Shown here: positions 14,272 to 55,205 of the stretch, piece by piece
Layout of the letters: every line of letters begins with the position of its first letter
Numbering within the stretch: the first letter of the stretch is position 1
Origin: a phage
Sequence record: PX880099.1
Strand: one strand, 5' to 3'
Length of the DNA stretch: 64,000 nt
Position numbers and translations under genes: made by a program
Notes under the pieces: model-generated
Database searches by the model: none
The model's input: the letters and a program-made list of their open reading frames with translations, nothing else
What the model was told of the DNA's origin: nothing

Positions 14272-14451
14272 ATGGCACGTTTAGCAGATCATGAAATCTT
14301 TAAACCTATTCTGAACCACTATGATGAACTTAAAGCAGTGTTGGATTGTTATAGAGAGGATGAAGAACGTTTGGAAGTCAATCTTAAGATAGTTCTGATG
14401 AAAGCTTTTCAAGACGGGCAAGCTAAAGTTTTAGAAGGCATGAAAAAATGA
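14272..14451 (+). CDS. small hypothetical protein
   Basis: Start re-picked to ATG (MARLADHE) after AAAGGAGAA. Confidence 0.45.
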   Translation: MARLADHEIFKPILNHYDELKAVLDCYREDEERLEVNLKIVLMKAFQDGQAKVLEGMKK

Positions 14452-14990
14452 GAATAACTGATGAATATGTATTCTTCTTTTCACATAAAGATGTGTTTAG
14501 TAATTGGTATATTGCACCCTTTACAGAAACTGAACCAGGTTACAATGAGACTTTCTGTTGTGTTGAGCAATATATGATGTGGCGTAAGGCTTTGCTGTTC
14601 AAGGATCATGCGATTGCAGCAGCTATCCTTGATCACTCAACTATACGTGACAACGAGAGGAAACAAGCATACTACAAACGTATGGGTCGAGCGGTATCTG
14701 GTTTTAATAATGATATGTGGGAAGAGAACCGTGAGCGTATTGTTATGCGAGGCTTATGCTTGAAATATGTACAGAATCCAGATTTGTATGCAGACTTACA
14801 CCTTTACCAATACAAAACGTTTGTTGAAGCAAATCCTTACGATAAGGTTTACGGTATTGGAATGGGAATGTATGAACCAGGGGTGCTAAACCCTGCTACC
14901 TGGAAAGGGCAGAATCTTTTAGGCAAATATCATAATAAACTGATCGAAATACTTTTCCCAGACAAAATACCGCAAAGACGATATTTGTGA
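14448..14990 (+). CDS. NADAR-domain (YbiA/DUF1768-like) protein, candidate ADP-ribose-processing enzyme
   Basis: 180 aa; FFFSHKDVFSNWYIAPF, CVEQYMMWRKALLF, W..NRERIVMRGLCLKY.QNPDL, GIGMG...W.GQNLLGK match the NADAR pattern. Confidence 0.7.
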   Translation: MRITDEYVFFFSHKDVFSNWYIAPFTETEPGYNETFCCVEQYMMWRKALLFKDHAIAAAILDHSTIRDNERKQAYYKRMGRAVSGFNNDMWEENRERIVMRGLCLKYVQNPDLYADLHLYQYKTFVEANPYDKVYGIGMGMYEPGVLNPATWKGQNLLGKYHNKLIEILFPDKIPQRRYL

Positions 14991-46405: not shown

Positions 46406-46450
46406 GCTAGAACCCACCTAAATCGAACAGAGACGCTCTAAAATAGAAAA

Positions 46451-46479
46451 GGCACCCACTTGGGTGCCTTTGTTTTATT
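46451..46479 (+). terminator. terminator at the convergence of plus and minus blocks
   Basis: GGCACCC-ACTT-GGGTGCC followed by TTTGTTTTATT. Confidence 0.6.
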
Positions 46480-46758: not shown

Positions 46759-46781
46759 AATAAGAAAGGGGCCGAAGCCCC
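46759..46781 (-). terminator. terminator-like hairpin GGGGC-CGAA-GCCCC
   Basis: On the minus strand followed by TTTCTTATT; identical stem-loop recurs at 58868-58886. Confidence 0.5.
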
Positions 46782-46790
46782 TTGAGTGGT

Positions 46791-47606
46791 TTATTTGTTT
46801 AAGTGGTCTTCGACCATTTTAATGAAACCTTCATTGCTGAAGGCTGTTGCAGCTTTTTCTCGGTAAACAAAAACTCCACGATCTTCATAGAGAAGTGTTT
46901 CTTCGTAATTAACTCCAGGGTTAACTACAACCATTTTTGTACCCATACTAAGCGCAGGGAATAATTCCCAATTAAAATTGATAACTTGGTTTGAACATCC
47001 TACTACTACAACCAAATCTTGCATGGTCAAAGTATCGAACAAGTGAGCCATATCTGCATACAAAGGTGCAGCCTCACCAAAAAATACAACATTAGGCTTC
47101 ACCCAGTTATAATCATCTATGTTTATACTATTGTAACCAATATCTACCAGTGTTTTGTAATCTCCAGGATGCATACGGTAAACTACTTCAGGAAGATATC
47201 CGTGCACGTGAATAACAGAATCTCTGTCTACACCTGCTCGCTCTAATAGATCATCAACGTTTGTCGTCAAGTTTACTACTTGGTTAGGATATTCCTTAAA
47301 CCACTTTGCTATTTGAATATGTGCAGCATTAGGTTGTACATCTTTAAGCTCAACACGTCTTTTGTTATAAAATTCGTGTGTTTTGGCATACAAATCCATA
47401 CCGTTCTCGTCTACACCACCGACCACTGGAAGATCTGGAGATGTTCTAACACGATAACCTGCTTGGAAAGCTCCAATATCGCAGACCTCTTCTAAATCAT
47501 ATTCTTCCCATAAGGCACGACCACTATCGGTGTCTGTTCGGAATGTTCTAATCCCACTATCTGCACTTAAACCTGCACCGCTTACAAAAATCACTCGTCT
47601 TGGCAT
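46791..47606 (-). CDS. Sir2-family (sirtuin-like) NAD-dependent enzyme lacking an obvious zinc ribbon
   Basis: 271 aa; FVSGAGLSADSGIRTFR, TTNVDDL, VIHVHG, VVFFGE, VVVVGCS. Confidence 0.7.
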   Translation of the reverse strand: MPRRVIFVSGAGLSADSGIRTFRTDTDSGRALWEEYDLEEVCDIGAFQAGYRVRTSPDLPVVGGVDENGMDLYAKTHEFYNKRRVELKDVQPNAAHIQIAKWFKEYPNQVVNLTTNVDDLLERAGVDRDSVIHVHGYLPEVVYRMHPGDYKTLVDIGYNSINIDDYNWVKPNVVFFGEAAPLYADMAHLFDTLTMQDLVVVVGCSNQVINFNWELFPALSMGTKMVVVNPGVNYEETLLYEDRGVFVYREKAATAFSNEGFIKMVEDHLNK

Positions 47607-48082
47607 TCTTCCTCCTCATAATCATCATAATCTTCGTCATCCAAATCGTACACTTCGTCTTGAGAATAACTCACTTCAAAGTAAATATCAAACTCCGCAA
47701 ACAAACGTAGAATGTTGGACATGCTATAATAATTATCGTAGGCAGATTCAGCTTCATAGTAAACATAAAGCAAATGGTTAGCCTTATCATCTTCCAAATA
47801 TTTCCCGTCTGCATACGCATAGTCTGCATATGCTTTACCTGCATCTTCCACAAGAGAACGATCAAGCAGAGTAGGAAATGGTTTCTCTTTTTCTTTTAGT
47901 TTGCTCACCAACCAGTGTGCAATATCATGCCAATCTGCATCCTCTCCGCTGAAGCAGCTTGCGATTTCGCCAAACTTGGCATCTCCTAAGTCTCCGCTAA
48001 TAGTGATCATGGTTGAACTATTGTAACCACAAGTTTCGCAATTTGAACAACTGTTGTGCACATGAATTTCTACTTGAAACAT
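47591..48082 (-). CDS. hypothetical protein with Cys-rich N-terminus and acidic C-terminal tail
   Basis: 163 aa ORF, SD AGGAGGGAAT. Confidence 0.5.
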   Translation of the reverse strand: MFQVEIHVHNSCSNCETCGYNSSTMITISGDLGDAKFGEIASCFSGEDADWHDIAHWLVSKLKEKEKPFPTLLDRSLVEDAGKAYADYAYADGKYLEDDKANHLLYVYYEAESAYDNYYSMSNILRLFAEFDIYFEVSYSQDEVYDLDDEDYDDYEEEECQDE

Positions 48083-48140
48083 ATTCCCTCCTATAAAAGA
48101 AAAGCCCCCTGAAACAGGAGGCTTTGTTCAGATATCGGCA

Positions 48141-48794
48141 CTATACCAGACTTTCAAGGTATTTGTCAAGGGCTTCTTGATCACCTTGACAAACATAGCA
48201 ACGGAAGTCTTGAGCCGAAGGTTGTTTATTTTCATCCCAGTCCCAATAAACATTACCCTTATAACGTGAACCAGGAAACTCAAAAGAGGCTGTATGTGTA
48301 ATGTATCCTGGGCCACCAGTGAAATCACAGAATGAGAATTGGGGGTATGCCGCCTTTACTGCCTCAATAAACCAAGCTTTACGATCTAAAGCTTCATTGA
48401 TGCTATACGCATGTCTCTCCATTTCTTCCCACGTTTTCCAGACACTTCTTTCATCAGGAGAAAAGACAAGCCATTCTGGAAGGTAGAGAGTGTCATAGTA
48501 ATCATCATATTCGATCTCGGAGGCGCACGAGGCTGACTCCTCCAGTCTTGAGTAATCAAAAGCAGAATATACCCACCAACCATCTTCCAGTAAGGCTTTG
48601 ATAGGGACGAAGCCTTTATCAGCATATTGATCGAATTGTTTGACACGGTGGCTTGTGCAGTCTTCAAACTCACATTCTAAACGATATGACCCTTTTCGAC
48701 GAGCCTCAAGACCGTGTGTACTGAAAATAACAACACTTCCTTCACCATCATTACGATCTACTTGATAAGCAACTACTGGTTTTGAATTTGACAT
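48141..48794 (-). CDS. hypothetical protein
   Basis: 217 aa ORF, SD AAGGAGAAA. Confidence 0.55.
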   Translation of the reverse strand: MSNSKPVVAYQVDRNDGEGSVVIFSTHGLEARRKGSYRLECEFEDCTSHRVKQFDQYADKGFVPIKALLEDGWWVYSAFDYSRLEESASCASEIEYDDYYDTLYLPEWLVFSPDERSVWKTWEEMERHAYSINEALDRKAWFIEAVKAAYPQFSFCDFTGGPGYITHTASFEFPGSRYKGNVYWDWDENKQPSAQDFRCYVCQGDQEALDKYLESLV

Positions 48795-49866: not shown

Positions 49867-50808
49867 TTAATAACCTCCTTCAAAAGGCTTTACTACATGT
49901 TGATTAGCTTTAAAACGTTCAACATAGTCGTTTTCACCCATGTTTTCATATAGTTTAGTAACAACATAAAAGTTTTCCCAAGCATATTCCCTAAACCAAC
50001 CACTAGTGATGGATGTGCAGACTTTAGATAAAGCCATTATAAAACTTTGCTTAGGGGTTGGACCTCCGATCTCTTCACCGAAAGGAATTTGTGAACGTTC
50101 CAAAGCCAAAACACACGCTTCTTCATAAACACCTAACAGGCGCACATGTTTTGGTTGAGCAAAAAACTTTTCTTTGCTGGTCATAACTTCACTTCCATCT
50201 TTCATATAAGATTTATATGCTGGAGCATCCATTACCGCGATTGCTTCATGGATAGAATCATGATCATAAACATACGGAACCTCATCACCTTTAAAGAAGT
50301 CTTTACTTTTTACGTTTAAGTTTGGATGAGAGTAAGTGTATGTTTCTTTCTCACGCAACTCATAAATACTCTTAAGATTTTCTGGGATCTTTGCGCCCAG
50401 TGATCGCATGAAATGAATATCTTTCATAGTTTTAAAGAAGTGAGGACTATCCTTTTTAAAACGATGACTCATTTTAAGAAGGTAGAGCACATCTAAAGGA
50501 GCAACAACGTGTCCAGCGTAAGTTCGACGAATATCATCAGAGTCTTCACAATAACTAATCAAAGCTTCTGTGCTATCTCCTTGAGAAGCAATATCGTATT
50601 CCAAATGTGCACCAGCTATCATTTTGACATGGCCTTTGTTCCCTTTACGTTCTACAAGTTCAACAAACTCATCTTGAGAGAACATTTTTGATAATTCTTC
50701 CCACTCTTGTTCTGTACACAGGTAATCTAGATCTACACAAGGGCGATACAAGTCTTTTCCCATGTCCATAGCATGAATTTGTAATGCACGGCTACCAATT
50801 AACACCAT
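49867..50808 (-). CDS. hypothetical protein, fold unassigned
   Basis: 313 aa ORF, SD GAGGAGAAA; N-terminal IGSRAL...DLD loosely reminiscent of a nucleotidyltransferase motif. Confidence 0.5.
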   Translation of the reverse strand: MVLIGSRALQIHAMDMGKDLYRPCVDLDYLCTEQEWEELSKMFSQDEFVELVERKGNKGHVKMIAGAHLEYDIASQGDSTEALISYCEDSDDIRRTYAGHVVAPLDVLYLLKMSHRFKKDSPHFFKTMKDIHFMRSLGAKIPENLKSIYELREKETYTYSHPNLNVKSKDFFKGDEVPYVYDHDSIHEAIAVMDAPAYKSYMKDGSEVMTSKEKFFAQPKHVRLLGVYEEACVLALERSQIPFGEEIGGPTPKQSFIMALSKVCTSITSGWFREYAWENFYVVTKLYENMGENDYVERFKANQHVVKPFEGGY

Positions 50809-52157: not shown

Positions 52158-52648
52158 AAAACCTCCTCAATCTTGTAGTTTGACTCCATCTCCAACACAT
52201 TTCCACGAACGTCTCTCCGAAGAAAGGCATAAGCTTTATTAGGTATTGTAGACTCATATTTAACCATATCTGGCACAGCAAAAGATACTACTACTCCTGC
52301 TGGGCTTCTGTCAAGAGCCTTATTAATATTTCTAAGGATATCGTTAGCCAAGATTTCTGCCAATTCTCCAAGAACAGTTTCGGTTATATCTTTATATCCC
52401 ATTAAGTATTTGTTGATATCTTTCATCTCTGTATTGTTCAGAGTATAGTCCAAAGGATAGAAATTCAAAGCGGAGTCACTTTTATGTGTCCACATGAAAT
52501 GCACCCGATCCGAGCAGAATCGTAACCCTCTGTGAAGAATATCTTCTACAACAGGGAGAATTTCTTTTGTCACATCATTAACCATGTTGTAATCTAAGAT
52601 TTCTGCCAAGTTTGTTCTTTGTTCACCACGTTTACGTTTAGGAATCAC
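52136..52648 (-). CDS. hypothetical protein (GTG start)
   Basis: 170 aa ORF. Confidence 0.45.
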   Translation of the reverse strand: MIPKRKRGEQRTNLAEILDYNMVNDVTKEILPVVEDILHRGLRFCSDRVHFMWTHKSDSALNFYPLDYTLNNTEMKDINKYLMGYKDITETVLGELAEILANDILRNINKALDRSPAGVVVSFAVPDMVKYESTIPNKAYAFLRRDVRGNVLEMESNYKIEEVLWQSSDQ

Positions 52649-53219
52649 TTGTTATTGCCCTCATTACCAAAGGTCGTAGAAAATCGTAAATCTCTTGTTT
52701 TGTTTTCCCACGAATGTTTAAACAAGGAACATTATTGGCTTTAGCTATCTTCCAAGCCGTAGCTGTTCCACCTTTTGCATCTCCATGTTTATCAGTATTA
52801 GCACAAGCCAACAAGAAACATGATGGAGCAGGATTCTCCAAATCTCTACCTAACACTTGATGCACATTACGTTGGTGCAATTTTCTAGCACCCTGCTTAA
52901 GCTTTTCATAGGCTGGGTGAACATCTTTGATCCATTGCACAGAGATAGCATAGTTCATTGTATCTGGTTTTGCAAGAACAATAACATCCCCTGGAATCTG
53001 ATTACCTTTGAAATTTTCCCAAGGAACATAAATCTCCTTGTTAGTAGGATTTTCAGACTCTTGGACACCTGTTTCAAAAGCAGAATCACTACCCTCTGCC
53101 TTCCCAGACCTTAATTTAAACCCAAGGTTTGAAAGCCATTTCCCTATGCCTACCATCAAAGCCCACTCTTCTTCGGATATGTCTCTACTTCCAACTCCCG
53201 TATAGAACAGTTCTGCCAT
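52638..53219 (-). CDS. DprA/SLOG-like Rossmann-fold protein
   Basis: ATG (MAELFYTGVGSR) after GAGGTG; TGVGSRDIS and LRSGKAEGSDSAFETG resemble the DprA nucleotide-binding core. Confidence 0.4.
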   Translation of the reverse strand: MAELFYTGVGSRDISEEEWALMVGIGKWLSNLGFKLRSGKAEGSDSAFETGVQESENPTNKEIYVPWENFKGNQIPGDVIVLAKPDTMNYAISVQWIKDVHPAYEKLKQGARKLHQRNVHQVLGRDLENPAPSCFLLACANTDKHGDAKGGTATAWKIAKANNVPCLNIRGKTKQEIYDFLRPLVMRAITSDS

Positions 53220-54614: not shown

Positions 54615-55205
54615 TCAAATTATTAACGAAACCGCATGACTAAATCTTGGTTCAGATATAACCTCTGCTACAGTCACATATGTATCGTGCAGCCAAAAAG
54701 ATTCTACTCTACAAACACAAATACCGTTGATAATGAAATCTACACAGGATTTATTATTTTCGCACACCTGTTGACTATAAACAACCCCTAAAGAGTCATA
54801 AAGTGATCTCACTGTTGCTATCATTTCATCTGTTTCGTCTTCCTGTGAAACAAAGAAAACGAATACAGACAAGTTATTAGCGAAAGTATTGCTATTCTCT
54901 ACTTCAACCGACTTACAAGGTAAAAAGGAGTAATATTTACCGCTAGGTATCAATTTCGCCTCAACCTGGTTAAGTATGCTTTGAGATGGTTTTGTTACAT
55001 AAAAAAGATTTTCTGTTGGGTTTTCAACATTACTCCTTACTATGCAACGAGTGGGGTTCGAAGGATCAAAAACATGATCGAAATCGACACACACAGGTAA
55101 GTTAACAACTTTAAACTTTTTGCTAAGAATGCTTACTGCTGTAAAAATCAAACCAGCATTTATTTTGCCAGTGAAAGTTGAACGCATAACTACTCCTCGG
55201 ATCAT
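54615..55205 (-). CDS. hypothetical protein
   Basis: 196 aa ORF, ATGA-coupled. Confidence 0.5.
   Translation of the reverse strand: MIRGVVMRSTFTGKINAGLIFTAVSILSKKFKVVNLPVCVDFDHVFDPSNPTRCIVRSNVENPTENLFYVTKPSQSILNQVEAKLIPSGKYYSFLPCKSVEVENSNTFANNLSVFVFFVSQEDETDEMIATVRSLYDSLGVVYSQQVCENNKSCVDFIINGICVCRVESFWLHDTYVTVAEVISEPRFSHAVSLII

Follow-up and report, generated by a model that had tools for sequence, protein, structure and literature searches.

A zinc-less sirtuin of Phapecoctavirus belongs to a widespread phage clade and is tentatively predicted to act as a class III-type deacylase

Introduction

In canonical sirtuins, the zinc module is required for activity, and mutations at the zinc site inactivate the enzyme. 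To our knowledge, PF02146 sirtuins that retain the HG motif and carry a Tyr-x-x-Arg pocket have proved to be lysine deacylases in every biochemically characterised case. Sir2 domains of the defence type lack the Cys4 zinc ribbon, as does the phage protein described here. SirTM-type transferases carry QG in place of HG and are linked to macrodomains (PMC4518038).

Sirtuins are also encoded by phages. A missing zinc ligand was reported in 2016 for the Sir2/CobB proteins of phiSt2 and KVP40 (PMC5107563). Iyer, Burroughs, Anantharaman and Aravind (2022) described a 'distinct clade of viral sirtuins' and proposed a role in RNA repair from gene context (PMC9503650). Our literature search found no study that tested a phage sirtuin biochemically or genetically. 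Here we analyse a sirtuin gene in a 64-kb stretch of phage DNA (64,000 nucleotides of record PX880099.1, hereafter the window). The window comes from a Phapecoctavirus (phAPEC8-like) phage of E. coli, with 96% DNA identity to Phapecoctavirus genomes.

Results

The gene and its transcription unit

The 271-aa ORF belongs to the Sir2 family, matching Pfam SIR2 (PF02146) with an E-value of 1.3e-22 and 81 bits (cut-off 24). PHROG 2162, 'Sir2 (NAD-dependent deacetylase)', aligned over the full length of the protein (residues 2-271, E 8.3e-105), and the top PDB sequence match was E. coli CobB (E 1e-18). Judged by sequence comparison, these family matches are far above chance. The AlphaFold model (mean pLDDT 91.3) has both the Rossmann domain and the small domain of the sirtuin fold, and its closest structural matches are CobB, Sir2Af1 and SIRT5. 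The protein has a pI of 4.8 and a net charge of -15; the pI is 5.4 for the CobB-S core and 9.4 for KptA. The G+C content of the gene is the same as that of the phage (0.391 vs 0.392 for the window) and the gene is kept throughout the genus, so we regard it as a resident gene under selection. Recent horizontal acquisition was rejected on the same G+C values.

The ORF directly upstream encodes an acidic, Phapecoctavirus-specific protein without a fold match (Table 1), and we infer that the sirtuin is translationally coupled to it. The hairpin just 5' of this 163-aa ORF delimits a two-gene unit consisting of the ORF and the sirtuin. Eight terminator-like sites were observed where 1.6 were expected. 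The promoter is listed only as a candidate because promoter-like matches in this region were no more numerous than in shuffled sequence.

Six neighbouring ORFs searched against Pfam, PHROGs, NCBIfam and PADLOC gave either nothing or domains of unknown function only. In one neighbour, a 313-aa DUF7275/DUF7277 protein, the motifs G-S...D-x-D and H...H-D were suggestive of a CCA-adding-like enzyme (nucleotidyltransferase plus HD). This identity was considered and rejected, as a PDB profile search and hhalign against E. coli Cca both returned nothing. Its link to the sirtuin is not obligatory, because it is absent from two phages with a 97% identical sirtuin.

Table 1. Features of the sirtuin locus and the NADAR gene, in window coordinates.
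Feature	Position	Strand	Evidence or detail
Sirtuin gene (Sir2 family)	46791..47606 (including stop codon)	minus	uninterrupted ORF, ATG start, 271 aa
NAD-binding loop VSGAGLSADSGIRTFR, residues 8-23	47538..47585	minus	aligns with CobB GAGISAESGIRTFR
Insertion in helical small domain, residues 46-72	47391..47471	minus	alignment; closest relatives only
Tyr80-Asn-Lys-Arg83, class III Tyr-x-x-Arg pocket motif	47358..47369	minus	aligns with CobB Y92/R95
TTNVD codons, residues 114-118 (Asn116 and Asp118 of TQNxD motif)	47253..47267	minus	invariant in 43 homologues
Catalytic His135-Gly136 codons	47199..47204	minus	gtg at 47202-47204, CAC on minus strand
Cysteine-free beta module replacing Cys4 zinc ribbon, residues 137-170	47097..47198	minus	without cysteine
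Upstream ORF	47591..48082	minus	163 aa, pI 4.05; overlaps sirtuin start by 16 nt
Shine-Dalgarno GAGGAGG, within acidic tail codons of 163-aa ORF	47611..47617	minus	sequence; 4 nt before sirtuin ATG
Terminator-like hairpin directly 3' of sirtuin stop codon	46766..46783	minus	terminator annotated at same place in phage Schickermooser
Terminator-like hairpin just 5' of 163-aa ORF	48101..48125	minus	11-bp stem; terminator annotated at same place in phage Schickermooser
Candidate sigma-70-like promoter (TTGACA, 18-nt spacer, TATAGT, with TG)	48140..48169	minus	near-consensus match, 11/12 positions
NADAR gene	14448..14987	plus	PF08719, E 1.7e-34

Active site and substrate pocket

The NAD-binding motif occupies residues 9-23 (SGAGLSADSGIRTFR). 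Every other core Sir2 motif claimed in a preliminary description of this DNA was also found: TTNVDDL (residues 114-120), HVHG containing His135-Gly136, VVFFGE (173-178) and VVVVGCS (199-205). An alignment of 43 homologues with 56-77% identity to the phage sirtuin revealed that G10, A11, G12, S14, S17, G18, F22 and R23 of the loop are invariant, as are N116, D118, H135, G136, F176, E178, G203 and S205. All 139 family representatives keep H135, G136 and N116. The preliminary description had named a failure of the catalytic His or the NAD-binding residues to align with functional sirtuins as grounds for dropping the assignment, and these residues do align.

Both parts of the class III pocket are present, namely Tyr-x-x-Arg and a small residue at the position of SIRT5 Ala86. 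Y80 and R83 are invariant in the 43 close homologues, and across the 139 representatives the Tyr is found in 134 and the Arg in 108. The small residue is C42, invariant in the 43-homologue alignment and aligned with (and replacing) A76 of CobB. The other pocket residues pair as Y80/Y92, R83/R95, V117/I131, V173/V187, F176/F190 and V208/V219 (phage/CobB). The residues of the hydrophobic acyl-lysine tunnel do not vary within the clade, and each is the same as in CobB or a conservative change.

By sequence and predicted structure, the phage sirtuin is nearest to the class III deacylases (CobB, Sir2Af1 and SIRT5), and the ADP-ribosylating SirTM proteins and the defence NADase Sir2 proteins are clearly more distant. 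Its top NCBIfam matches are CobB-type deacylase models, yet it scores far under their curated cut-offs (106.6 bits vs 243 for NF001753, and 86 vs 320 for the CobB equivalog NF040867). Because this is true of all CobB equivalog models, the phage sirtuin is not a CobB orthologue.

Loss of the zinc cysteines

The phage sirtuin contains two cysteines in total, C42 and C204, neither of them within residues 137-170, and it has no CxxC ... CxxC ribbon. CobB has four cysteines, all inside the zinc module; at the matching positions neither the phage sirtuin nor those of four other phage lineages have a cysteine. The model predicts a three-stranded sheet at the position of the zinc ribbon (strands 136-144, 152-155 and 168-173), with a block-mean pLDDT of 95-97 over residues 131-170. 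The loss of zinc is a trait of the whole clade, in which the four cysteines are gone and the small beta module is kept as a fold. The description of a phage Sir2 protein with complete core motifs but no four-Cys zinc module is thus confirmed by Pfam, PHROG, the alignments and the cysteine count. Across the 139 representatives, the region corresponding to residues 137-170 contains at least four cysteines in 81 and none in 40. Because these 40 relatives likewise lack cysteines in the module, their absence is a recognised variant inside the Sir2 family and no ground for exclusion from it.

Distribution of the family

Zinc-less sirtuins form a large clade retained across many phage lineages. An identical protein had previously been deposited, and the Sir2 label had already been given in dozens of near-identical phage genomes. 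Homologues with 30-100% identity occur in 984 phage records, mostly annotated as Sir2. Neither the gene nor its family label nor the zinc-less trait is new. The earlier suggestion of an unusual sirtuin was not borne out, as this is a widespread annotated family whose zinc-less trait was published in 2016 (PMC5107563).

Between residues 44 and 76, the phage sirtuin and three of the four 50%-identity representatives nearest to it (P0121, P0123 and P0124) have a segment of 24-38 residues. The fourth representative (P0122) has 14 residues there, and most others have 11. The insertion of about 20 residues (46-72) also occurs in the T5-like phage S113; CobB and the sirtuins of the rV5-like, nt-1 and jumbo phages lack it. 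The distant representatives are almost all metagenomic proteins. Domain fusions of distant relatives were considered as a 'Rosetta stone' clue and set aside as uninformative, with only WG repeats, an RHS repeat and a GIY-YIG domain found.

Candidate activities

Our best guess, held tentatively, is an active zinc-independent sirtuin of the CobB/SIRT5 (class III) type, which we predict to be most likely a protein deacylase. NAD+ would occupy the usual sirtuin site, made up of the G10-R23 loop, N116/D118, G203/S205 and N229, as the invariant residues and the confident model suggest. An oxygen nucleophile of a macromolecular substrate would attack C1' of the nicotinamide ribose and nicotinamide would leave; His135 would activate a ribose hydroxyl and the intermediate would be resolved, all of which is standard sirtuin chemistry. 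The likeliest substrate would be an acyl-lysine of host or phage proteins (acetyl, and probably also acidic acyls such as succinyl and malonyl), because the pocket matches those of CobB and SIRT5 residue for residue. The phage would then produce, during infection, an NAD+-dependent protein deacylase co-translated with the small acidic Phapecoctavirus-specific protein. The acidity of the protein, predicted from its sequence, also speaks for a deacylase, as the CobB-S core is acidic whereas KptA is basic. No basic residues are conserved solely in the phage sirtuin's clade (43-homologue alignment). Counting against a deacylase are the cysteine-free module, where canonical sirtuins need zinc, the replacement of VYP of CobB by VIN, and the scores far under the CobB equivalog cut-offs. 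The conservation of the pocket could be structural, or the pocket could hold a phosphate in place of a carboxylate.

The main rival is the RNA-repair role of Iyer et al. (2022), which we consider possible but on balance unlikely. The sirtuin would use NAD+ in the manner of Tpt1/KptA to remove an RNA 2'-phosphate. The 2'-phosphate at a healed or ligated tRNA break would attack NAD+, giving 2'-phospho-ADP-ribosyl RNA. A His135-assisted attack by the ribose 2''-OH would then release ADP-ribose 1'',2''-cyclic phosphate and leave RNA with a clean 2'-OH. This would be the final step by which the phage mends tRNAs that host anticodon nucleases have cut. This chemistry parallels the sirtuin mechanism, and Y80 and R83 could bind the phosphate. 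However, the residues of the narrow hydrophobic acyl-lysine tunnel are all kept, and the protein is strongly acidic without a clade-specific conserved basic patch.

A nucleic-acid substrate is indicated because the homologues in three other lineages adjoin genes for RNA-end processing and nothing related to acylation. In the rV5-like phage EdH4, Rnl1, cREC (PF20274, E 3e-15), Sir2 and a MazG-like gene follow one another in this order, adjoined by a kinase and a metallophosphoesterase, and Seunavirus SPLA5a has the same cassette. In the T5-like phage S113, Sir2 is followed by two small ORFs and then HAD_SAK_2 (E 4e-19), and the jumbo phage fENko-Kae01 has, in this order, a 2H phosphoesterase, Sir2, one ORF and Nudix. 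Overall, 46 of 80 IMG/VR loci have an RNA-end-processing gene (Rnl1, cREC, kinase, HAD_SAK, 2H or Nudix) within 3 kb of the sirtuin. However, cREC and HAD_SAK owe their 'RNA repair' labels to context-based predictions by the group of Iyer et al., and the 2H protein of the jumbo phages best matches the anti-CBASS protein Acb1, with NAD-salvage genes also nearby.

This survey, an independent confirmation of the gene contexts, supports the RNA-repair reading in three other phage lineages and not in Phapecoctavirus. The Phapecoctavirus genome has about 10 tRNA genes and keeps cREC, a metallophosphoesterase, Rnl1, an AAA_33 kinase, a DNA ligase and a MazG-like gene, but this cassette lies beyond the window, ~31 kb from the sirtuin. 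No RNA-repair gene was found within 10 kb of the sirtuin here or in any of the six Phapecoctavirus-like IMG/VR loci (6/6). The sirtuin has moved ~31 kb away from the RNA-end-processing cassette and is now coupled to a lineage-specific acidic protein. Also speaking against RNA repair, T4-type healing by kinase/phosphatase and Rnl1 leaves no 2'-phosphate, and E. coli already encodes KptA. We know of no sirtuin that acts on RNA. If the reading is right, which we doubt somewhat, the zinc-less phage clade may be the first sirtuin group to act on nucleic acid, removing 2'-phosphates from broken tRNA ends or ADP-ribosylating them.

It is improbable that the protein is an effector of counter-defence or host takeover, acting as an NADase, as an ADP-ribosyltransferase on defence proteins or signalling nucleotides, or as a deacylase of a defence protein. 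In the jumbo-phage relatives the sirtuin gene does have an Acb1-like 2H phosphoesterase on one side and a Nudix hydrolase on the other, next to NadR-like and NAPRT/NAMPT-like genes, and 17 of 80 loci have an NAD-salvage gene within 10 kb of the sirtuin. However, no such genes (NAMPT/NAPRT, NadR-like) were found in the window or in 118 kb of a related genome, and an unregulated NADase would starve the phage of NAD+. The phage sirtuin matched no PADLOC defence Sir2 model, and the traits of the defence-associated Sir2 NADases (profiles of ThsA, DSR, Sir2-HerA, SPARSA and Avs5; partner or sensor domains) were not found. A SirTM-type enzyme is also contradicted, as HG is invariant and the flanking ORFs contain no macrodomain. 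The adjacent acidic 163-aa protein, without a fold match, could be inhibitor-like.

The preliminary description had placed the sirtuin in an NAD and ADP-ribose theme. The NADAR gene of this theme is real and lies within the window, but it is 32 kb away, on the other strand and in a separate transcription block, and a counter-defence theme is not supported by it. The supposed DprA/SLOG-like ORF (52641..53219) had no Pfam match at E <= 0.01. A Tad2-like gene also failed to appear, with no Tad2 or SLOG family among the matches listed, which cover 25 of the 33 Pfam families in the window. The counter-defence reading of the phage sirtuin has little support.

We consider it very improbable that the loss of zinc ended catalysis and left a degenerate or structural sirtuin that only binds NAD+ or ADP-ribose or partners the 163-aa protein: such an outcome would fit the inactivating zinc-site mutations of canonical sirtuins, the scores under the CobB equivalog cut-offs and the translational coupling, but the catalytic and NAD-contacting residues are all invariant despite divergence to ~30% identity, which is unexpected for a dead enzyme, the zinc-less members are a large clade kept in many phage lineages, and the zinc-free beta module has high model confidence. 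Overall, the evidence ranks deacylase-type chemistry first among the candidate activities and an NADase effector last.

Discussion

The finding itself adds little, as databases and the literature already cover the gene, its Sir2 label and the absence of zinc ligands. The family is nevertheless worth experiment. About a thousand sequenced Enterobacteria and Vibrio phages carry it, among them T5-like and rV5-like phages used in therapy, and its sirtuin active site is fully conserved without zinc. If the protein is a deacylase, infecting phages would reshape the acylome of the host. If its target is the RNA 2'-phosphate, sirtuin chemistry would reach nucleic acids and phage tRNA repair would gain its missing step. 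Either activity, if true, would reveal zinc-free folding of the sirtuin small domain.

Among known systems, Tpt1/KptA is a functional analogue and not a homologue. Like sirtuins, it transfers ADP-ribose from NAD+ to an oxygen nucleophile, but its fold is ART-like and not Rossmann, and KptA is basic (pI 9.4) where the phage sirtuin is acidic (pI 4.8). The Tpt1-like role was proposed for the clade on the basis of gene context, which our survey confirms in three other lineages; in this genome no RNA-repair gene stands beside the sirtuin. ThsA, DSR2, Sir2-HerA, the Avs5 Sir2 domain and SirTM share the Sir2 Rossmann core and NAD+ binding with it. The features of SirTM (class M), QG and a link or fusion to a macrodomain, are both absent.

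CobB (PDB 1S5P and 6RXJ) is a class III sirtuin with lysine deacetylase, desuccinylase and lipoamidase activity and the top match in both sequence and Foldseek searches (TM-score 0.85, normalised to target length; 27% identity). The two proteins share the GAGxSxxSGIRTFR, TxNxD, HG and FGE motifs. They differ in the substrate loop (VYP in CobB, VIN in the phage sirtuin), in all four zinc cysteines and the basic N-terminal extension of CobB-L, which the phage protein lacks, and in its insertions at residues 24-29 and 46-72. The class III deacylases SIRT5, Sir2Af1 and PfSir2A, whose acyl pockets are wide, bind zinc via Cys4, unlike the phage sirtuin, and are only 18-28% identical to it.

By profile match and phage origin, the protein belongs to the PHROG 2162 clade with the sirtuins of T5-like, rV5-like, KVP40/nt-1-like and jumbo phages. 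The five aligned lineages of this clade have in common the motifs, an acidic pI (4.8-5.1) and the absence of zinc cysteines, and only part of the T5-like group shares the insertion at residues 46-72. In Phapecoctavirus the sirtuin does not stand beside RNA ligase, cREC, HAD or 2H genes and instead comes after the genus-specific 163-aa ORF.

The phage sirtuin belongs to a known gene family

The product of the sirtuin gene matches Pfam SIR2 (PF02146, E 1.3e-22) and, end to end, PHROG 2162 'Sir2 (NAD-dependent deacetylase)' (E 8.3e-105). Its top sequence match among solved structures is E. coli CobB (E 1e-18). All five Sir2 motifs listed in the preliminary description were found. Across the alignment (43 homologues, 56-77% identity), G10, A11, G12, S14, S17, G18, F22, R23, N116, D118, H135, G136, F176, E178, G203 and S205 are invariant. 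These positions are the NAD+-binding and catalytic residues of sirtuins. There is good support for an active, NAD+-using enzyme.

The sirtuin region shares 96% DNA identity with many Phapecoctavirus (phAPEC8-like, Stephanstirmvirinae) E. coli phages, including Schickermooser, ESCO13 and Mt1B1_P17, most of which already carry a Sir2 or NAD-dependent deacetylase label on this gene. Using tblastn, we detected homologues in 984 phage records, with a 100% identical one in phage dw-ec. These records cover T5-like Demerecviridae, rV5-like Vequintavirinae, Klebsiella and Salmonella phages, Vibrio KVP40/nt-1-like phages and jumbo phages. In 2016, a Vibrio phage Sir2/CobB was modelled and found to lack the zinc ligand, as does that of KVP40, and T5 and other phages were named as Sir2/CobB carriers (PMC5107563). 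A 2022 survey placed the majority of viral sirtuins in 'a distinct clade' and proposed a role in RNA repair (PMC9503650). Because of these labels and papers, the gene, its family and its zinc-less feature count as already known; the sirtuin was correctly observed, but it is an ordinary representative of an established phage family and had been annotated before. Literature searches turned up no experiment on the activity of a phage sirtuin.

Some other database labels look wrong. Orf49 of Salmonella phage S113 (locus L003, 6153..6668), labelled 'Sir2', matches HAD_SAK_2 (E 4e-19) and is thus a phosphatase; in Pectobacterium phage DU_PP_V, the homologue of the sirtuin (representative P0060) bears the label 'tail assembly protein'; and a 190-aa 'histidyl tRNA synthetase' of Schickermooser (locus L001, 26588..27160; window 54618..55187) has no Pfam match.

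Genomic setting

The sirtuin gene is the second in a two-gene unit, and a 16-nt overlap probably couples its translation to that of the upstream ORF. The 163-aa product of that ORF is very acidic (pI 4.05), has invariant H9, C15, C18 and C43, is confined to Phapecoctavirus and resembles no recognisable fold. Possible roles are those of a sirtuin regulator, partner or substrate. Terminator-like hairpins flank the pair, and phage Schickermooser has terminators annotated at both equivalent places (8 terminator-like sites were found in the region vs 1.6 expected). Before the 163-aa ORF, a near-consensus candidate sigma-70-like promoter (11/12 positions, with TG) lies directly upstream of a strong terminator-like hairpin; this odd order could be accidental, or the hairpin could be an attenuator or stabilise the 5' end.

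Features of the sirtuin region and related loci (window coordinates unless a compared phage locus, L number, is named)
Feature	Coordinates	Strand	Remarks
Sirtuin gene	46791..47606	-	Single ORF filling the coordinates, ATG start, 271 aa
163-aa ORF	47591..48082	-	Upstream; its last 16 nt overlap the sirtuin gene
Shine-Dalgarno GAGGAGG	Last codons of 163-aa ORF	-	4 nt ahead of the sirtuin ATG
Terminator-like hairpin	48125..48101	-	Just upstream of the gene pair
Terminator-like hairpin	46783..46766	-	Just after the sirtuin stop codon
Promoter-like match and hairpin	48101..48169	-	Upstream of the 163-aa ORF
Bidirectional terminator-like hairpin	46448..46471	Both	Minus-strand block meets plus-strand early genes
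313-aa DUF7277+DUF7275 protein	49867..50808	-	Also L005 1843..2604, L013-L016, L049, L051, L058, L063
NADAR gene	14448..14987	+	PF08719, E 1.7e-34
Phapecoctavirus RNA-repair cassette	L008 5488..11226		Schickermooser record 46.4-52.2 kb; past the window end

Further upstream of the pair are genes for a 217-aa unknown protein, a Dcm-like methyltransferase, a 137-aa unknown protein and a 313-aa DUF7275/DUF7277 protein; on the downstream side, the gene for a 90-aa protein of no assigned function is followed by a bidirectional terminator. The sirtuin gene and the 90-aa ORF are the last genes of a long minus-strand block that converges on small plus-strand early genes. This gene order is conserved in a Phapecoctavirus with a sirtuin of only 67% identity.

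Several unrelated lineages, among them the T4-like Vibrio phage nt-1, also encode the 313-aa protein 2-3 kb upstream of their sirtuin, and two phages (L011, L012) with a 97% identical sirtuin lack it. Its invariant motifs are nucleotidyltransferase-like (G5-S6 ... D26-x-D28) and HD-like (H115 ... H183-D184); comparison with the PDB and Cca matched nothing. Elsewhere, the Pfam scan of the window found one member each of DUF4326, the CapR homology domain, the resolvase N-terminal domain and the phage tudor domain. It also found a complete dTDP-rhamnose (RmlABCD-like) gene set, which ORF sizes and a related phage's annotation place probably at ~59.8-63.1 kb (the scan gives no hit positions).

Loss of the zinc module

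The preliminary description had reported that the four-Cys zinc module is missing, and this observation was fully confirmed. C42 and C204 are the sole cysteines of the sirtuin, and none falls within residues 137-170, the segment in place of the zinc ribbon; E. coli CobB has four, all in the zinc module, which align with no cysteine in this sirtuin or in those of four other phage lineages. A confident AlphaFold2 model built with the 43-sequence alignment (mean pLDDT 91.3, pTM 0.88) has strands 136-144, 152-155 and 168-173 in place of the zinc ribbon, with block-mean pLDDT of 95-97 over residues 131-170.

Among 1.84 billion cluster representatives searched, 2176 were relatives at E <= 0.001, and the query was aligned with 138 of the best 150 of these. 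At least four module cysteines occur in 81 of the 139 sequences and none in 40, while Y80 is retained in 134 and R83 in 108. In a neighbour-joining tree, the query falls within a clade that comprises at least 16 representatives and in which no member has zinc cysteines; the remainder are mostly zinc-containing forms, and ~7 state changes explain the distribution. The tree thus indicates that zinc loss is a trait of the clade. Only the closest relatives and some of the T5-like group share an insertion at residues 46-72.

Gene context in other lineages

We checked the gene contexts behind the 2022 RNA-repair proposal independently. The order in rV5-like EdH4 is Rnl1-type RNA ligase, cREC (PF20274), Sir2 and a MazG-like gene, with an AAA_33 kinase and a calcineurin-like phosphoesterase alongside and tRNA genes adjoining. 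Seunavirus SPLA5a has the same gene set. T5-like S113 carries NrdD, a small ORF, Sir2, two small ORFs and HAD_SAK_2. Jumbo phage fENko-Kae01 carries NadR-like and NAPRT-like salvage genes, a 2H phosphoesterase (top Pfam match Acb1), Sir2, one ORF and Nudix. In jumbo relatives (L006, L070, L073, L074, L080), the sirtuin has an Acb1-like 2H phosphoesterase on one side and a Nudix hydrolase on the other, with NadR-like and NAPRT/NAMPT-like genes a few kb away. This locus could be an NAD+ turnover/recycling island or an anti-defence island.

Profiles built from these proteins were searched against 80 IMG/VR loci. An RNA-end-processing gene lies within 3 kb of the sirtuin in 46 of them, which represent only three lineages and hence few independent observations, and an NAD-salvage gene lies within 10 kb in 17. 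Chance is an unlikely explanation for three differing gene sets with one theme. Phapecoctavirus-like loci are the exception, as no such RNA-end-processing gene lies within 10 kb of their sirtuin. Their cassette (cREC, metallophosphoesterase, Rnl1, AAA_33 kinase, DNA ligase and MazG-like genes, ordered nearly as in rV5-like phages) lies ~31 kb away with its sirtuin slot empty; this implies that the sirtuin moved out of the cassette within the Stephanstirmvirinae lineage.

Candidate substrates

The evidence on the substrate is divided, one part favouring an acyl-lysine and the other an RNA end. We tentatively favour a protein deacylase, to which the protein's homology, its predicted structure, its CobB/SIRT5 pocket and hydrophobic tunnel (both conserved) and its acidity point (pI 4.8-5.1 for phage sirtuins, 5.4 for the CobB-S core and 9.4 for KptA). 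Removal of an RNA 2'-phosphate, or a related RNA-end reaction, is a less probable reading suggested by the gene context in three other lineages. However, cREC and HAD_SAK owe their RNA-repair labels to prediction, and an NAD+ cycle fits the jumbo-phage context equally well. In such a cycle, the sirtuin would yield nicotinamide and O-acyl-ADP-ribose, Nudix would remove the latter, and NAMPT with NMNAT would regenerate NAD+.

An NADase or ADP-ribosyltransferase acting in counter-defence is improbable. The preliminary description had proposed an NAD and ADP-ribose theme; its NADAR gene is real but distant from the sirtuin, its DprA/SLOG-like ORF has no Pfam support, and neither a Tad2 nor a SLOG family appears among the 25 Pfam families listed, of 33 matched, in a scan of 142 window ORFs. 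The window does not show a coherent counter-defence module around the sirtuin, and PADLOC defence models gave no real match to it. An inactive binding protein is very improbable, because the complete active site is invariant down to ~30% identity; the remaining probability falls to some other function. With a testable, unusual hypothesis at hand, the family is a good experimental target.

Comparison with known sirtuins

In the structure and class comparison, the values were as follows: Sir2Af1 (21.1), PfSir2A (18.8), SIRT4 (18.1), SIRT2, Hst2 and SIRT1 (17.3-17.5), SirTM (14.4), PsSIR2 (13.4), Sir2-HerA (12.1), ThsA (11.2) and Avs5 Sir2 (10.1). The top NCBIfam matches are CobB-type deacylase models, all well under cut-off (106 bits vs 243); the sirtuin is therefore a divergent CobB relative and not an orthologue. 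In residue-by-residue alignments, the specificity pocket of CobB/SIRT5 is kept (phage/CobB: C42/A76, at the SIRT5 Ala86 position, Y80/Y92, R83/R95, V117/I131, V173/V187, F176/F190 and V208/V219); the substrate loop reads VIN instead of the VYP of CobB. SirTM enzymes are defined by QG replacing HG and by macrodomain linkage (PMC4518038), and the phage sirtuin differs from them in having neither.
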